A stretch of 62,790 bases of DNA, counting the filler, from Globobulimina sp. (lineage: Eukaryota), in assembly GCA_003354225.1 (NCBI GenBank). It is 29 parts of 29 records of this genome, joined end to end, with 100 filler letters (N's around TTAATTAATTAA, not from the genome) between each part and the next. Parts side by side here need not be neighbours in the genome. Positions count along the whole stretch, not along the records: positions 15,195 to 17,264 come from PIVH01009257.1; 28 more parts are not named here. The stretch is one strand, 5' to 3'. Position 1 is the stretch's first letter; each line of letters begins with the position of its first letter. Positions 16 through 58,748 of the stretch are shown here, piece by piece. The notes under the pieces were generated by a model. It made no database searches. It saw only the letters and a list, made by a program, of their open reading frames with translations, and was not told where the DNA came from. A program made the translations under genes and the position numbers.

Positions 16-2071
16 ATGAAAATGTATCACGAAATGATGTATTTATTAATATTATGCGATGTAGATATTGGCAAGGAATCATTGGTAGAAGCCGAGGAAA
101 ACACAGCTACAAAATCCAGAATCTGTTCCGCCTTGGAATTGGCGTATAAATTATATATCCCTCACATATTTGTTGCGTTGACATTAAATAAACGTGGAAA
201 TGTTTTTGGTCGTGACGATGACTGTAAATTACATGATATATTGACCTCAGCATCGGACCACGAAAAGATCCAACATATTATCAATAAATTATGGCGTGGA
301 TCTATATTGGATGAGATAATCAAATGCGATGATCACACATTAAGTATTTTAAGTGCTGCGTTATATTTTTATCATTTAATACGAGGCAAACAGTCTTTAA
401 AACGCATTGAAAAAACGTCATCGCCAACATCACATATTGGCGCTGGTGATGCAATGGTAACTTATTATAAATTTTTGAATCACACAAAGAGATTTTCAAA
501 GAAATGGAATGAAAAATATTATGCAAATTTATTTTTATTAAATAGATTTTGGTCCAAACCATACATTGCAAAATTAAAATTAATTGAATTACATATTGAA
601 TATAAAACATGCCAGCAAACAAAAGGATTTCTGCAATTTGTATCTTATTTGCCTCAATTTTGCAATCTTTCTTGTTTGGATTTGATATCGCTTTCAAACT
701 CACACAACGTGGATCAGCACCATTGTTGTAAGTTATTTGCGGCATTAAACAAATTTTGCCAAAAGAATTACACGTTAAAACGCATTAAATTCGAAGGGTT
801 TGAAATCAGTAAAAAATCAAGTAAATTATTGGCTGAATGGCTCAAACAATGGAATGATAGCTTTGACGCAGTACACACGATACAGGCATTATCATTGGTA
901 AATGTCAAGTTTAATAACAGGGGCATTCAGTTACTATGTGGCGCAATGGAATACAATCAACAATTAATATTTCAAGATTTAGTATTGGATGGAAACGTAT
1001 TTGATATCCCCGGCGCTCATTTCATATGTTCAATGTTACAAAATAAACGGATATCAACTCATTTACAATTGTTACAGATGAAAAATCTAAAATATTTATT
1101 TTTCGATGACGGTGACTCTTTGTTAAAAGTGTATTTGTTGAGAAGTTGCATGAAACACAATTTTCGAGTTATATTAAGTGACCGTGACAGTGACACTGAG
1201 GATGTTATTCTGGCTGCAAACAATTATATAAATAAAAACACCATCGATTATATTAAATCATGCACAGACAACGAATCGACTGCAGTGGCAATTGCGCATA
1301 AACATGATTATGATTATGATACCAAGGAAGAAGACGAAGTACAAATTGAATCGTGTTTGCGATCATTAGCTCCCAACGAAAAAGTGTGGACATATCAAAT
1401 GGAAAAAATCGAGGATACCTGCAAGGCGACAACATGTGCCACTGAATTGCAATCAAATCCTCATTTTGAAGCCGATAAACATAGTAACACATCAAATTGG
1501 AAAATACCCAAACCCAATTTCTCTAAAAATGCAAAGAAATCCCGCAAGATTTGTTTTTTTAAGCCGCGAGAATCCAATGCTAAAAAATTTAAACACAAAC
1601 GAGAACACAGCCGTAGCCATAGCCATATGCATGAAATCCATTCCTTTGAAGAAACAGACGATTGTATTGTGTACAATTCACAGTATAAATATTTATTTAT
1701 ACAGTTAAAAACAATGAAAGATGTGAATATTGAAATAGATTTAAGTATGTTCGATGCATTAAATGTCAAATTTTGTTACATCAAATTGTATAATAATGAT
1801 TCTAGTTTGACACTGTCAAACTCGTCGCTATCAAAGGAAATTTATTTCAGAAATATGATCTGTATTCAAGGAGCCAAAGAGCTTCGTTTTACCACCCATA
1901 GCCGAACTCACCATCAAAAACGGACTCATGTGAGGTGTCCATACTCCATTCATACTTGCGCCGGATCGAAATCGCCCATGCCCGACGGAAAAAGGATCTA
2001 TTCCTCTATACAAATCGAGATTGGGGAAAAACATCTCCCAGACCTCGAAGTTGCCGATGTCAGGCTCCGGG
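16..2071 (+). CDS. LRR (RNI-like) repeat-containing protein, 3' truncated
   Basis: Long ORF with degenerate LRR units (NLSCLDLISL, TLKRIKFEGFEI, IQALSLVNVKFNNRGIQLLC, FQDLVLDGNVFDIPGAHFIC). It runs into the spacer. Confidence 0.5.
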
Positions 2072-2171
2072 NNNNNNNNNNNNNNNNNNNNNNNNNNNNN
2101 NNNNNNNNNNNNNNNTTAATTAATTAANNNNNNNNNNNNNNNNNNNNNNNNNNNNNNNNNNNNNNNNNNNN
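2072..2171. other. Artificial contig-joining spacer (first of 28)
   Basis: N44-TTAATTAATTAA-N44 gives stops in all six frames and recurs about every 2170 nt. Contig lengths fall from about 2071 to 2067, consistent with a size-sorted concatenation. Confidence 0.98.
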
Positions 2172-4242
2172 TTTTCCTTTTTTTCTTCATTGTCATTTTC
2201 AACCATATCACTTGATTGTTTTACTATGGGCTGCAATTCAAGGTTGGTCTGACCTGTTGATGTTGGTTTGATGTCTTTCGTTCTATATACCTTTGGTTTA
2301 TTACTGCAATCCCAAATGGCATCGCCTCTACATTGATGATGAAATATCACTTTCACAATCCCTATTATCAGCCATTTCAGATGCGGTTGTTATTTCGTGC
2401 TGAATGAAATGAGTTGTTTTCATATTTTTCAAATCATAAGTCATAAATGAATCGTTTCCAGAACCATGGCTGATAATATGTACTATAACACCATTATATG
2501 CTGTATTTTCCAATTTGGCGGTATGGATATCAATAAAATCTATAATATCTCGTCTGGTGGCGTCCAATGTCTTTCCTTTACATGCAAATACATCGTAATT
2601 ATATACTCCTTCCCAAAGATCTAACAACTTATTAATTATACTCTGTACTCCTGGTAAAAATAATGATCTATTCTTAAATTGCGAGATTCCAATCAATAAA
2701 ACTAATGTTTTATTCACAACAAATGCTTTGTTATACCGCTTTCTATAAAGATAGAACACAATGCAAATTAAGCAACATGGAATAAGTAATAACGTAATTA
2801 GCCACAATAAGTTCCAATTAATAATGTCTTGCGAATAATCGCGTGGACGTATTGTTATTTCGATATCATCAGCAACTAACAGTTTCAAGTGTAAAGTTTT
2901 CAAAAGCTCGGGCATTGGTAACTGTTGGTTTTATTCTGATTACATCCGACACATTTACGACAAGAGTATCATCAATACGCAATTCAGCATTATAAAATGC
3001 AACGGTAAGAGGTGCAGAATAATCACTGATTATGTTTTGAAATTGGTCCGTTATAAAAAATGATAATTCCAAATATGCGTCAACAACATATTGCCGATTG
3101 TATTCAAAATAAACATAATATGGAGTTGTATGGTTAATCCATGAGGACTCATTAAATGATAATAACATTAAATGACTTTGGTCGACGTCATTGTGAGATT
3201 TATTTGTACATCGCACATGCAATTGAGAGATATATCGTTGATCATTGCTGTAATAATTTTGCAAAACGTCATAACAAACAAGGTAACAATTTCCAGCATC
3301 GTACATGAATGAGATAAATGATTCGTTGATAATGGCGTCTAAAAACACAAACACTCCTTCATTCATTTGCATTATGGCATATTTATAATTTTGAGAATCA
3401 AATATTGCAGAAAATGTAATATTATCCAGCATAATATTGGCGCCATTTGACTCAATAATTGCAGAATGAGGATTAATTGCAGCCCAATAATCCATTGGAC
3501 TCGATGCTGAAAATAGTTCATAATTCGAAACGTAACTTGTTTTTCCAAGCGATGCATAAAAACACTTGTTTTGATCCTCAAATATATTTTCAAGATTGTC
3601 TCTAAAACATGAGGTTATCGACGCTGAGTTCCCTGCTTCAACCGTAATAATAGTGGACGCGGCAAACGTGTTCCCACTAAAACAAATTGTGCGAAAGCTG
3701 TCAATATAAAATAATGCCTTGTGGTTTTTAAAAATGCTGTGTTCGATGATGTTGTTGTATACAATATACATTTTAACGCCGCCAATAATATGTATAACAC
3801 CCTTCGCTTGATATGGTACTGATGATATATTATATACACTGCCTGTATCGTTTCTGTCAATGGTGTTGTTGATGAATATAACATTAGATTGGAAAAAAGA
3901 ACTCTCATATGTTGAAGGCCAGGCTGGTGCAAATGTGATGATGCCGGCATTATCATCTGTTCTGAAATAACAATTTTGAACCAATATATCTGACCCAGTT
4001 AGAAGCAGTGGTGGAGTACGGGCCACCCAATGATCCACAGGTAACAGTAATAGCATTTCAAACATATACGATGAAAGAGTATGACACTGGCCAACATTAA
4101 TAAATTCACAATTAATTAGCTGTAACATTGAAATTTTTTCCATTGTTTGTACTGCTAAATATCCATATTGCAGGCTTGAATTAATCACGTAATCATTGCC
4201 AGAAAAAAACCTGGCTATACCACCGATAGCAACATCCAAGTT
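2172..4242 (-). pseudogene. Single-pass receptor with cytoplasmic caspase-like (peptidase C14) domain, two frameshifts, both ends truncated
   Basis: ORFs 2869-4239 (Asn/Ile-rich ectodomain), 2328-2915 (TM helix LLWLITLLLIPCCLICIVFYLY, then LVLLIGISQF...VIVHIISHGSG) and 2120-2356 (VKVIFHHQCRG) join across frameshifts near 2880 and 2357. The His-Gly and QCRG motifs match the caspase catalytic dyad. Confidence 0.75.
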
Positions 4243-16644: not shown

Positions 16645-16870
16645 ATTTGTGAAATTTTGTTTGAAATATTAAAATATTTTCTTCAATTTCTTTTTTATTT
16701 TTCCCAGTTGAGGCATTCAAACAAAAAAAAAATCAACATCGTCAATAAAATATCCATTTGACTTTTTCGGTTCGCATTTCTAAACACTTCTTTTGTGATT
16801 GACTAAGGCAACATTTAGGAGCAGCGCCCCGTTCGCATGGATTTGGTCAGGAAAAATAAATTTATTCAAG

Positions 16871-17112
16871 CGGTTCAGGTGGGATTTTAACCCACATCCA
16901 TGTGTGTTGCATGACAGAATTAATTAAACAGGATAACACTGATAAATGCTGGATTTTTATTGCTTTTAGCGGTTATTTTTTTTTTATTTTGTTTTTTTTT
17001 GTTTGAAGACGTTGCATATGATCATATATTGCATCATAAGCACATGTTGCAGTTATTCAGGGTGCAGCCAAAGCCACAAGACACACGCTCTAACGAGTTG
17101 AGCTACTGAACC
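16871..17112 (-). ncRNA. tRNA-shaped element with about 170-nt insert in the anticodon loop (copy A)
   Basis: Minus strand reads GGTTCAG-TA-GCTC-AACTCGTTA-GAGC-G-TGTGT-CTTGTGGC..insert..ACACA-TGGAT-GTGGG-TTAAAAT-CCCAC-CTGAACC-G. All four stems pair and the T-loop is degenerate. Confidence 0.8.
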
Positions 17113-17810
17113 TCATTGTATTGGTATTACTTAATATCCTGGAATCAAACAATTGTATACATATACAATGTTGAAAATACAATTAAAAGATCATGGTAAA
17201 AGAAATTAACAAATATCTATTTAACTTTTTTGGCTTAGTTTTGTTTCGTTTCATTTCATCGATTNNNNNNNNNNNNNNNNNNNNNNNNNNNNNNNNNNNN
17301 NNNNNNNNTTAATTAATTAANNNNNNNNNNNNNNNNNNNNNNNNNNNNNNNNNNNNNNNNNNNNAGGCTAGCGGGGGGGGGCTAACCCAAAATTGCGATT
17401 TTTGGCCAAAATATTGCGTTTTTGAGTTAAAAACGATAGGAATAGTAAAATTACCAAGCAATAATCACTTTTTAAGGCATACGAGATAATTATATCGAAA
17501 TTTAAAATAATTTCTGGCTGCTGTCTACGAGTTTTTATGTCAGATTTTTATGGTAAACTGCTAGGAATCGATTTCTGGCATGTTTTGAGGGCAGTTTGGA
17601 GTAATAATAAACATATATTTGGTCAGAAAACATGATTTTTGCCCAAAGTTCATGGTACGAAAATTCCCAAAAATTTTGCCCCCAGGCTAGGGGGGGGCTA
17701 GGCCGATGCTCAGGGTGGGCCAGCCCCCCCCCCGTGTGCAGGTCTGCCAGTGCAGTGCATACAACTACATAGAAATGCATTAAAAATTGCGTAAAATACT
17801 TTATTCTTAC

Positions 17811-18723: not shown

Positions 18724-19260
18724 ACCTATAACAAATGGCGCATTAAAAAGTATGCTACATGTATAATCTGCGCCTAAATATTACTGTAAAATGGCAAGTA
18801 TTATTCACGTGTCACGACTTTTTATATTTTCATCTTGCAACTGTTAAAATTAGCCAATAACAGATATAACATAGGATAGGAACTTGGCCGAAAATAGTTA
18901 AAATTTCAATACCAGAATTATTTCTCATCCTAGCATTATTCCAATTGGTTTCGAACTTGGCCGAAAATCAAAATTTCAATAAAAATACCAGAATTATTTC
19001 TGATTCTATTCCAATACAAAATACAACCTATAACAAACCTATAACAAATGGCGCATTAAAAAGCATGATACATGTATAATCTGCGCCTAAATATTACTGT
19101 ATCATAAATGGCAATTATTGACGTGTCACGCACGACTTTTTATATTTTGATTCTTACATCTTGCAACTATTCAACTTAGCCAAAAACAGATATAACATAG
19201 GATAGGAACTTGGCCGAAAATAGTTAAAATTTGAATGAAAACACCAGAATTATTTCTCAT
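18724..19260. repeat. Imperfect direct duplication of about 205-225 nt
   Basis: ACCTATAACAAATGGCGCATTAAAAAG...GAACTTGGCCGAAAATAGTTAAAATT...CCAGAATTATTTCTCAT occurs at 18724-18928 and 19037-19260, with a partial third copy near 18953-19001. Confidence 0.9.
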
Positions 19261-19342
19261 AATATTATATCACAATGTCGTCACAGTGGATGATGATGAT
19301 GATTTTTATTGTACTTTATTGTGCTGTACTGTACTGTTCTTT

Positions 19343-40906: not shown

Positions 40907-40960
40907 GACTCAGTAGCTCAATGGATAGAGCGTGTGTCTGCAGCTTCTGCTGTCCCTCCA
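40907..40960 (+). ncRNA. tRNA-shaped element, 5' half only (copy B)
   Basis: GACTCAG-TA-GCTC-AATGGATA-GAGC-G-TGTGT-CT-GCA-GCTTCTGCTGTCCCTCCA. No 3' half appears before the contig ends at 41120. Confidence 0.75.
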
Positions 40961-41220
40961 CAAAACTACTCTAATTTCTATACAGAATAGGTAAAAGAAA
41001 CCTGGCATCAGTCAGTCACTTTGCTGGCTAGTGTATGGGTGCTCTTTGTATCTGCTCGGTAACATCTAAGATTTCATTGATTTAACAACCCAACCAATCT
41101 TAAAAAAAATCGTAATATTGNNNNNNNNNNNNNNNNNNNNNNNNNNNNNNNNNNNNNNNNNNNNTTAATTAATTAANNNNNNNNNNNNNNNNNNNNNNNN
41201 NNNNNNNNNNNNNNNNNNNN

Positions 41221-49258: not shown

Positions 49259-49428
49259 GTTAGGTTCATCGATTAATTAAAAAGAAAAATGGGATGATTT
49301 ATTATTAAAAGATCAATTATTATTAAAATACAATGGAAAATAAGGATGCTTTTGGTGGATTTGAGGAATCGGTCTTTACGAAAATATGTCTGATCATAAA
49401 TATGTGTTTATGTACAAAAAATATATAC

Positions 49429-49631
49429 TGACTCAGGTAGGATTCAAACCTACATCCATGTGCATTGTAATCACAACATTTCATATGACGATTTTTATGT
49501 TGATAAAGTATCGTTTACGGAACACCATAAAAACAAACTGTTTTAAAAAAAAGCAAATGAAGTTAATTGTTGGTGGAACAGCATAAGCTGCAGACACATG
49601 CTCTATCATAAACTAGTTGAGCTACTGAGTC
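49429..49631 (-). ncRNA. tRNA-shaped element with about 120-nt insert in the anticodon loop (copy C)
   Basis: Minus strand reads GACTCAG-TA-GCTC-AACTAGTTTATGATA-GAGC-A-TGTGT-CT-GCA-GC..insert..GCACA-TGGAT-GTAGG-TTTGAAT-CCTAC-CTGAGTC-A. Confidence 0.82.
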
Positions 49632-55540: not shown

Positions 55541-55996
55541 GTATTCAAAAAGATAACCTCTCCGTGGTCGATAAGTTGAATACATTTTTTCAATTATTTG
55601 AGAAACGGTTTGCAATTCCAGAAACAGTTTGCTATAGATTTGTCTTGGATTTGACTGTGTTTGTTATAACTTTGCGATTTACAATATTGTAATTTTATTT
55701 GAGTCCGTTTGCGTGTACTACAAATTATCATATTTATAAATTGCAACAAACCTACGTCAATTCAACATTATCGGTCAGCACCAAATTCATTCAGAAATAT
55801 AGTTATTGGGAGTGGATGTATTGCAACAGGACAATTCAATTATCAATTTGTTCTGACTTTGTTCTGGATTTGCAAACCCAAGACAAAGTTATAGCAAACC
55901 GTTTCTGGATTTGCAAGGAGTTTCTCAGATAATTGAATAAAATGTATACAACTTATCGACCAGGGAGGGGGGGCTTATCTTTTTAATAGCATCGTT
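55541..55996. mobile_element. Fold-back/MITE-like element with about 110-nt imperfect inverted arms
   Basis: AAAAGATAACCTCTCCGTGGTCGATAAGTTGAATACATT..TTTGTCTTGGATTTG (55547-55653) is the near reverse complement of 55873-55984. Confidence 0.85.
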
Positions 55997-58287: not shown

Positions 58288-58350
58288 ATACCTTCTCGGC
58301 CTTTTGGCTAAGATCAAGTGTAGTATCAGTTCTTCTCAATAACTGACATA
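58288..58350 (+). ncRNA. U2: U2 spliceosomal snRNA 5' domain (variant or pseudogene)
   Basis: ATACCTTCTCGGCCTTTTGGCTAAGATCAAGTGTAGTATCAGTTCTT matches the conserved U2 5' end, including the branch-recognition sequence GTAGTA. Similarity fades after about 50 nt. Confidence 0.85.
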
Positions 58351-58748
58351 TTTGCATCTGTAAAACAAACAATCAAATCGAATAAACTCGTACAATCATT
58401 CGCAATTTTAACATCAATATATGCTGCTCGTAATTTGTATTTATTCGCTTACCGAANNNNNNNNNNNNNNNNNNNNNNNNNNNNNNNNNNNNNNNNNNNN
58501 TTAATTAATTAANNNNNNNNNNNNNNNNNNNNNNNNNNNNNNNNNNNNNNNNNNNNTTCTTGAGCCAATTTGGCACCCTAAATAAAGAACTACTTTCTTT
58601 TTGCGAGGAAGAACTACGTTTCAAATTTTGCATCAGACTTACGTTTTAAATACACATTTAAAATTCCATACTTTTTTAATCAAGCAATAACAACAAATAT
58701 TCAGATGTCTGCACAGACACACACCAGCCACTCCTTTCCAATAACATC

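Follow-up and report, generated by a model that had tools for sequence, protein, structure and literature searches.

A conserved tRNA-shaped gene family whose members carry a long insert at the intron site of the anticodon loop, in Globobulimina sp. and in metagenomic contigs

Introduction

How should one understand sequences that have the shape of a tRNA at both ends and carry, in the anticodon loop, a long stretch of DNA that seems to differ from copy to copy? The question is raised by a window of 62,790 nucleotides from the Globobulimina sp. assembly GCA_003354225.1, by which we mean the whole stretch of DNA analysed here, composed of 29 contigs of 2067-2071 nt each, with N spacers between them. 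A first-pass annotation of this window had reported three such copies on three unrelated contigs, and had proposed a Pol III tRNA-scaffold cassette, a mobile element or an intron-encoded RNA system. All three copies lie exactly where they had been placed (Table 1), and their contigs are indeed unrelated, the window being made of separate contigs joined by N spacers.

The window has a G+C content of 33%, without CpG depletion, and contains long intron-free reading frames with PIP5K, FMO, HlyIII+LRR, C-type lectin, mitochondrial carrier, DnaJ, PH, SAM and SPRY domains. One of its carrier proteins shares ~45% identity with its closest named relatives (diatoms, Thecamonas, Chlamydomonas) and 62-82% with metagenome proteins. 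The frames, the G+C content and the carrier-protein identities therefore point to a protist with a genome rich in A+T and dense in genes, from a lineage that has been poorly sampled. Several repeats were also observed in the window: (i) a 149-nt direct repeat of 96% identity at both ends of one contig (21705-21853 and 23626-23774), which has the highest G+C content of the window (42.6%) and may be a circular molecule or a ~1.9 kb tandem unit, (ii) a ~225-nt direct repeat of 85% identity (18724-18928 vs 19037-19260, region 18724-19266), with shorter echoes, and (iii) a 117-nt inverted repeat of 85% identity (55542-55653 vs 55873-55988).

Results

Three window copies recognised by their tRNA halves

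Covariance models of the 5' and 3' halves were run on the window and recover three 5' halves and two 3' halves, with E values from 8e-13 to 1e-19. The three matches of the 5'-half model reach 63.8-81.1 bits (E 8e-15 to 1e-19) and the next one 12.5 bits (E 1.2); the two matches of the 3'-half model reach 58.7 and 70.6 bits and the next one comes at E 1.5. Neither model finds a further copy in the window below E 1. The stems quoted in the first-pass annotation are all present, namely GGTTCAG/CTGAACC vs GACTCAG/CTGAGTC in the acceptor stem, GTGGG/CCCAC vs GTAGG/CCTAC in the T stem, and the shared TGTGT anticodon stem and TGGAT variable loop.

Table 1. Positions of the three window copies, of their parts, and of the U2 snRNA gene of the window.
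Feature	Position	Strand	Size or score
c1, whole	17112..16871	-	242 nt
c1, 5' exon: acceptor 5' strand, D arm, anticodon-stem 5' strand, loop C32 U33 UGU G37	17075..17112	-	5'-half model 63.8 bits
c1, insert: A-rich middle, no T run of 4 or more, ends G-C-A-A before C38	16907..17074	-	168 nt
c1, leader hairpin: first ~12 nt of the insert paired with the 'anticodon'	17078-17063	-	
c1, 3' exon: position 38, ACACA anticodon-stem 3' strand, TGGAT variable loop, T arm GTGGG/TTAAAAT/CCCAC, acceptor 3' strand, discriminator G	16871..16906	-	3'-half model 58.7 bits
T5 run 15-19 nt after c1, Pol III terminator-like	16852..16856	-	
c2, 5' exon: GCA type, D loop keeps GG	40907..40943	+	5'-half model 81.1 bits
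c2, insert, to contig end: leader hairpin 40940-40953, no T run of 4 or more	40944..41120	+	at least 177 nt
c3, whole	49631..49429	-	203 nt
c3, 5' exon: GCA type, 15-nt D loop	49588..49631	-	5'-half model 72.8 bits
c3, insert: leader hairpin 49591-49578, internal T8 and T5 runs, ends A-C-A-A before U38	49465..49587	-	123 nt
c3, 3' exon: T arm GTAGG/TTTGAAT/CCTAC, discriminator A	49429..49464	-	3'-half model 70.6 bits
T6 run 8-13 nt after c3, terminator-like	49416..49421	-	
U2 snRNA gene	58288-58400	+	69.2 bits (Rfam)

With its default settings, ARAGORN finds none of the copies in the window; with introns allowed it detects c1 alone and miscalls it as SeC, and the Rfam tRNA model gives no match in the window even at E up to 10. 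The inserts had been said to share only a short leader. This is right for c1, whose insert has nothing above chance in common with the others beyond the leader, and has to be corrected for c2 and c3, which share one extra 14-nt block beyond the first 30 nt (13/14 identical, a score equalled by 5/300 shuffles). Runs of A8-A10 occur in the c1 and c2 inserts. c3 is probably a decayed copy, because its internal T8 and T5 runs would stop Pol III, and its 15-nt D loop is a further sign of this.

The family beyond the window

Relatives were found by pattern scans of public contigs, L003b and L004b being added by eye and with the model, and L003c with the model. Because the pattern imposed 24 letters of the exons, identity between exons is overestimated and members at a greater distance escaped sampling. 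The family comprises 18 members, three in the window, 11 on eight metagenome contigs (31-48% G+C) and four on contigs of one metagenome-assembled genome (MAG; 30-32% G+C). Thirteen of them are complete and measure 194-244 nt; c2, L007 and L003c are cut by contig ends, and L005 and L008 are 5' parts without a 3' half anywhere on their locus. Viral contigs scanned with the pattern gave no match, and no description of such a family was found in open-access papers and bioRxiv.

The Rfam tRNA model (RF00005) exceeds its gathering score in 6/13 complete members (35.6-45.8 bits), the insert being treated as one giant insertion, and falls below threshold in c1, c3, L002, L003b, L004a, L006 and L009. 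Placement of these elements by Rfam in a family already described had been named at the outset as a refutation; this outcome is half realised, since it holds for 6 of the 11 complete relatives and for neither of the two complete window copies.

Family members are dispersed between protein genes in this genome, and elsewhere they are found in small-RNA clusters (tRNAs, tRNA-Sec, 5S, SRP RNA, U2) or in a non-coding repeated unit of ~2 kb. The 3.9-kb contig L002 carries, at 124-3807, a 5S rRNA gene, 29 different tRNA genes and one family member; the tRNA array has nearly one gene per anticodon, including the eukaryote-type Val-AAC and Arg-ACG, and its spacers of 3-109 nt often contain T runs. A tight cluster of a family member, tRNA-Arg(CCG) and tRNA-Sec is kept in L001:289-989, L003:4-397 and L004:686-1081, with spacers of 10-17 nt devoid of T runs and with SRP RNA fragments and a U2 gene nearby, an arrangement that suggests one polycistronic transcript. 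Three paralogues lie within 1.76 kb of L003. Inside the L006 insert (1150-1260), tRNA-like pieces occur in permuted order, first T-arm-like and then D-arm-like, with weak matches only (22.9 bits for Rfam tRNA, 11.2 bits for the 3'-half model).

L001 is a metagenome contig that carries both a family member and a U2 snRNA gene (822-989), the first 54 nt of which are identical to those of the window U2 gene. Both U2 genes share, in the stem I region, departures from what we take to be the consensus. The shared 54-nt identity suggests that the window organism and that of L001 belong to one lineage.

The MAG contigs (L009-L012) are titled Gammaproteobacteria bacterium, and each of these short contigs has a complete member followed by a T7-T14 terminator. 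L010 and L011 are 91% identical over ~1.45 kb, and the ends of L012 match adjacent inner parts of L010/L011, as expected of a repeated unit of ~2 kb. This unit gives weak U3-like matches on L009-L012 (28-30 bits, below threshold), and L012 has no ORF of at least 80 aa. These are probably eukaryotic contigs binned by mistake.

A cloverleaf maintained by compensatory changes

The differences between the two complete window copies had been described as compensatory, and this description extends to the 13 complete members. When these are laid on the cloverleaf completed by the anticodon-insert hairpin, 95.6% of cells are paired, and double-sided changes are found in 16/26 pairs, a number reached by 0/500 shuffles and to be compared with at most four such pairs in slid controls. 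They affect 7/7 pairs of the acceptor stem, 4/5 of the T stem and 3/5 of the anticodon-insert hairpin, the D stem being invariant. Pairing is complete (100%) in the acceptor, D and T stems; most members have an anticodon stem of only 4 bp, and the hairpin of L003b and L004b, which forms in a shifted register, was counted as broken. A nine-member version of the test gives the same picture. The family is real: it is a conserved set of genes that are shaped like tRNAs and carry a long insert where the intron site lies.

Position and ends of the insert

The insert lies between positions 37 and 38 in 13/13 complete members and measures 120-180 nt. Its leader is homologous in 17/17 members with a 5' half and forms a hairpin, usually capped by UUCG, in which G34-G37 and insert nucleotide 1 pair with insert nucleotides 6-10. 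Among the eight GCA-type members, insert identity is 93% over nucleotides 1-12, 55% over nucleotides 13-24 and 27% beyond, so that conservation declines as it does in an intron.

The 3' end of the insert reads R-Y-A-A in the complete members, or A-T-A-G in two of them: position -2 is A in 13/13, position -1 is A in 11 and G in two, and position -3 is C in eight and T in five. Position 38, which follows, is U in 12/13, and L003c adds one more GCAAT. The partner expected for C32, at position -4, is G in 5/14 and A in 9/14. A C/A-rich tract after the hairpin tends to pair with a G/U-rich tract near the insert 3' end (combined p = 6e-5 over 13 non-independent members, p < 0.05 singly in 4/13), which is suggestive of a closing helix. 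In the human endonuclease substrate, a 3-nt bulge C51-A52-A53 comes after the C32:G50 pair and is cut before U54 (PMC10539383). The Y-A-A/G end of the insert looks like such a 3' splice-site bulge, and would bulge out in the same way. The 5' cut site (G37|N) falls within the hairpin and not in a bulge, which counts against a spliced intron; moreover, from reading the sequences, the human-type 4-bp anticodon-intron helix is mostly absent and the pairs after C32 are mostly unformed.

Other ways of reading the insert were set aside. A cut register at 33/34 also yields ARAGORN tRNAs in 9/9 members (ACA 4, GCA 2, AUA 3) and was judged less probable over A34, which to our knowledge is unused by cells in the Cys and Tyr boxes. 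An archaeal-type bulge-helix-bulge was dropped, as it would need the anticodon to pair with the other end of the insert; so were a telomerase-template reading of the C/A-rich tract, which varies between members, and a GUG...CAC extension that RNAalifold adds to the leader hairpin and that is missing in L002, L006 and L004b. Inspection of the inserts by eye revealed no consistent boxes or pocket of a C/D or H/ACA guide RNA.

Exons compared with decoding tRNAs

The 17 members with a 5' half combine a single body type with four 'anticodon' triplets, GCA in 12, GCG in three, GUG in one and UGU in one (c1), and paralogues with different triplets share a contig in L003 and L004. The family is apparently derived from a Cys-type tRNA. 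Cys identity needs U73, and we know of no eukaryote that uses a GCG anticodon.

These exons bear on whether the members are ordinary working tRNAs (Cys, Thr, Arg, His) with unusually long introns. Such a reading would account for the canonical 37/38 site of the insert, for the covariation of its pairing with the anticodon, for the tRNA that ARAGORN returns in 9/9 members tested after in-silico removal of the insert at 37/38, for the six complete members accepted by the Rfam tRNA model, and for the conservation of U8, A14, A21, U33 and G53-C61 and of a purine at position 37 in 16/17 (L003b has T). It accounts poorly for the four anticodons, GCG among them, on one body type, and for the state of the exons themselves: pair 31-39 is broken in 9/13 complete members, the D loop keeps GG18-19 in 3/17 and the T loop TTC in 4/14, and the discriminator is U in 1/8 complete GCA members. 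An ordinary tRNA-Cys gene is present beside the family member in the 29-tRNA array of L002, and the insert leader is about as conserved as the exons. We therefore regard working tRNAs as improbable. The exons keep their cloverleaf by compensatory change but no longer bear the features by which a decoding tRNA is recognised; for this reason, they are read here as a possible scaffold for transcription and processing.

Transcription signals and read depth

A T4-T14 run is present within 40 nt of 11/14 3' ends; downstream of the remaining three, at a distance of 13-17 nt, comes a tRNA-Arg gene and then tRNA-Sec. These signals suggest that the family is transcribed by Pol III. Internal runs of at least T5 occur in 2/13 complete members, c3 (T8, T5) and L002 (T6), and count against a Pol III cassette.

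Depth was taken from the assembled contigs of runs X1, X6, X8 and X9, which may be of RNA or of DNA. In X1, summed depth is 2.7e5-6.6e5 over 16851-17057 vs ~55 on the PIP5K gene, i.e., ~10,000-fold, and only 2.8e4 in the 5'-exon bin of c1. In X6, it is 1.5e4-2.0e4 over 16851-16988 vs ~45, and zero over 16989-17057; in X8, it is ~8-14 over c1 vs 1-61 on the PIP5K gene. In X9, the contig of c1 is represented by hardly more than a single 206-nt contig, which is identical to 16873-17078. Contigs of X1, X6, X8 and X9 cross the border between insert and 3' exon unbroken, and in two X6 contigs adapter letters begin immediately at 16870 and 16872, at the tRNA-like 3' end. Among the contigs of these runs there is neither a junction that skips the insert nor a back-joined, circular one; as rare or short products are invisible to contigs, this speaks only weakly against splicing. 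Positions 17127-17195 are covered by none of the runs, a gap to which no weight is given. A ten-thousand-fold difference in DNA copy number is not to be expected between near-identical organisms; we therefore infer that X1 and X6 at least are RNA and that unspliced c1-type RNA is abundant.

Several features of these profiles were observed besides. The X9 contig starts exactly at the first 'anticodon' base, 17078 (tRNA position 34), and X1 depth falls 10-20 fold over the 5' exon; both might stem from a branch in the assembly graph, from reverse transcription halted at a modified base, or from a genuine end of the RNA. An inverted repeat of 16 nt without mismatch (16716-16731 vs 16992-17007) links the A-rich middle of the c1 insert to a T-rich stretch ~140 nt downstream of c1, and this low-complexity repeat may explain the raised depth at 16713-16781. 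At the contig end upstream of c1 (17196-17264), depth is raised in three runs (2161, 145 and 52) and an X8 contig diverges at 17218, which points to another repeated or abundant sequence.

The abundance of unspliced sequence raises the possibility that the insert is never removed, and that the transcript of ~200-245 nt is a stable tRNA-scaffolded RNA, in the manner of vault RNAs, Y RNAs or tmRNA. The tRNA-shaped ends would then provide transcription, end processing and stability, and the junction module, made of the tetraloop hairpin, the C/A-rich strand and the R-Y-A-A strand, would be a putative protein-binding site. This possibility, our main alternative and one that we hold tentatively, agrees with the depth of unspliced c1 relative to PIP5K, whose spread between X1, X6 and X8 seems to fit RNA abundance better than DNA copies, with the 206-nt X9 contig and with the X6 adapter positions. 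It is also in line with exons devoid of decoder features, with a base-paired 5' cut site and with a G partner for C32 in only 5/14. The pattern of conservation speaks against it: a functional domain conserved over its first ~12-24 and last few nucleotides only, with 27% identity in the rest, would be odd, and such a pattern is typical of introns; likewise, the insert 3' end mimics a splice-site bulge. As for the depth, Pol III precursors can far outnumber a weak mRNA and short spliced products escape these libraries, so that precursors alone might explain the abundant unspliced c1 sequence, in runs that may be of RNA or of DNA.

Mobile element or repeat

The first-pass annotation had also considered a mobile element. 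The corresponding alternative is a tRNA-derived SINE, or another mobile or decaying repeat, in whose anticodon loop unrelated sequence has landed. That 29 short contigs contain three copies, none of them farther than ~215 nt from a contig end, would suit a repeat, as would the internal terminators of c3, the 5' parts of L005 and L008 without a 3' half on their locus, and the very high c1 depth in X1. The very high copy number deduced in the first-pass annotation is still conjectural: 3/29 is the count of a biased sample, because short contigs break at repeats, and the depth over c1 may reflect RNA abundance and not DNA copies.

The usual marks of mobility were not found. The longest words shared by the flanks are of 5 and 7 nt, equalled in 819 and 344 of 1000 shuffles, respectively, so that no target-site duplication rises above chance; no terminal inverted repeat and no primer-binding site was detected, and there is no 3' tail, a T run lying downstream instead. 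Furthermore, the 3' tRNA half comes after the insert, unlike in a SINE, and the leaders are homologous in 17/17, which argues for inserts of one origin and not for repeated landings. Compensatory evolution across organisms of 30-48% G+C, and the location elsewhere in small-RNA gene clusters, also speak against a repeat. We consequently consider a mobile or decaying repeat very improbable, and the mobile-element proposal is not supported.

Discussion

Of the initial proposals, the tRNA-scaffold cassette and the intron-encoded RNA fit what is observed, i.e., conservation in other organisms, covariation, Pol III-type terminators and an insert always at 37/38. The explanation that we favour, while considering that it could equally prove wrong, is that the members are Pol III cassettes whose insert would be a long tRNA-type intron and whose exons would serve as a scaffold. 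The A-box-like and B-box-like regions, located in the two halves, would drive transcription of an RNA of ~200-245 nt ending at the downstream T run. In this precursor, the 'anticodon' and G37 would be locked in a tetraloop hairpin of 5-6 bp with insert nucleotides 6-10, and the C/A-rich tract after the hairpin would tend to pair with the G/U-rich tract near the insert 3' end. The 3-nt R-[Y-A-A/G] bulge before U38 would be the cut site for the tRNA splicing endonuclease, and it is because of its resemblance to a 3' splice site that the insert would behave as a long tRNA-type intron. The exons would act as a transcription and processing scaffold, the product being either this precursor or the insert once set free. 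Transcription by Pol III, endonuclease cleavage and the part played by the exons as a scaffold are the presumed steps of this scheme; what has been observed directly is the membership of the family, its structure and covariation, where the insert lies, the terminators and the abundance of unspliced sequence. A wider proposal, advanced with more caution, is that the family could be a natural tRNA-scaffold RNA class of a deep, barely sampled protist lineage. Its Pol III genes would retain the tRNA shape merely as a chassis on which transcription, processing of the ends and recognition by the endonuclease depend, and the 120-175 nt payload, different in each paralogue, would be kept as a stable RNP domain or released as a long-lived RNA, possibly as a circle.

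The nearest analogue that we know of is the fly gene CR31905, in which the host is a working tRNA-Tyr of an animal. In CR31905, too, an intron of unusual size interrupts the anticodon loop; it is conserved, its pairs covary, and RNA from its region is abundant in sequencing data (PMC4536317). The same source gives 113 nt for this Drosophila intron (CR31905/tric31905), the whole fold of which is conserved and for which circles were demonstrated (PMC4536317). Unlike it, the present family, known here from sequence, belongs to a protist, has inserts of 120-175 nt conserved only at their ends, and has exons without decoder marks.

A second comparison is offered by the substrates of the splicing endonuclease TSEN. 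The human pre-tRNA-Arg (PMC10539383) shares with the family a 37/38 insert, an intact cloverleaf, an anticodon-intron pairing and, presumably, a 3-nt Y-A-A bulge before U38. The differences are that the anticodon of the family pairs with the 5' end of the insert and not with the 3' end, that the 5' cut site lies inside that helix, that the partner of C32 is G in 5/14 only, and that the insert is several times longer. As regards length, a tRNA intron of ~64 nt in a green alga is called 'unusually long' in a 2026 review (PMC13578239). With tRNA-derived SINEs, the family shares a tRNA-like head with A-box-like and B-box-like regions, and several dispersed copies in this genome; unlike in SINEs, the body lies inside the tRNA, the 3' half follows it, there is no tail or target-site duplication, and covariation extends across organisms.

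Vault RNAs and Y RNAs are short Pol III transcripts whose ends pair and whose promoter boxes are internal; their paralogues have common ends and differ in the middle. The family would share these traits, but keeps a full cloverleaf and is longer, and no member has an Rfam match to vault RNA, Y RNA, tmRNA or SRP RNA, with E values of up to 10 considered for the window and of up to 1 for the other loci. A tRNA shape that hosts another RNA domain is also found in the archaeal pre-tRNA-Trp, whose intron holds a C/D box guide RNA, in tmRNA and in the bacterial YrlA. Unlike the archaeal pre-tRNA-Trp, the family has a eukaryotic host and inserts in which no consistent C/D or H/ACA boxes are seen by eye; unlike tmRNA, it keeps the D arm and the anticodon stem.

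Practical consequences follow for annotation. tRNA finders overlook these genes or annotate them as Cys, Arg, His or Thr tRNAs, by which tRNA censuses are distorted, and the four copies filed under a bacterial MAG are a binning warning. If our favoured explanation is true, tRNA genes can become pure expression and processing cassettes in nature, which has so far been mainly an engineering trick and the case of one fly gene, and long conserved tRNA-type introns would be extended to protists. The family would also provide a natural test of the splicing endonuclease on a helix-buried 5' site and a 170-nt intron. Finally, if the more tentative proposal of a scaffold RNA class holds, the family would become the first example, outside animals, of a tricRNA-like or scaffold system, with a host tRNA that has abandoned decoding.
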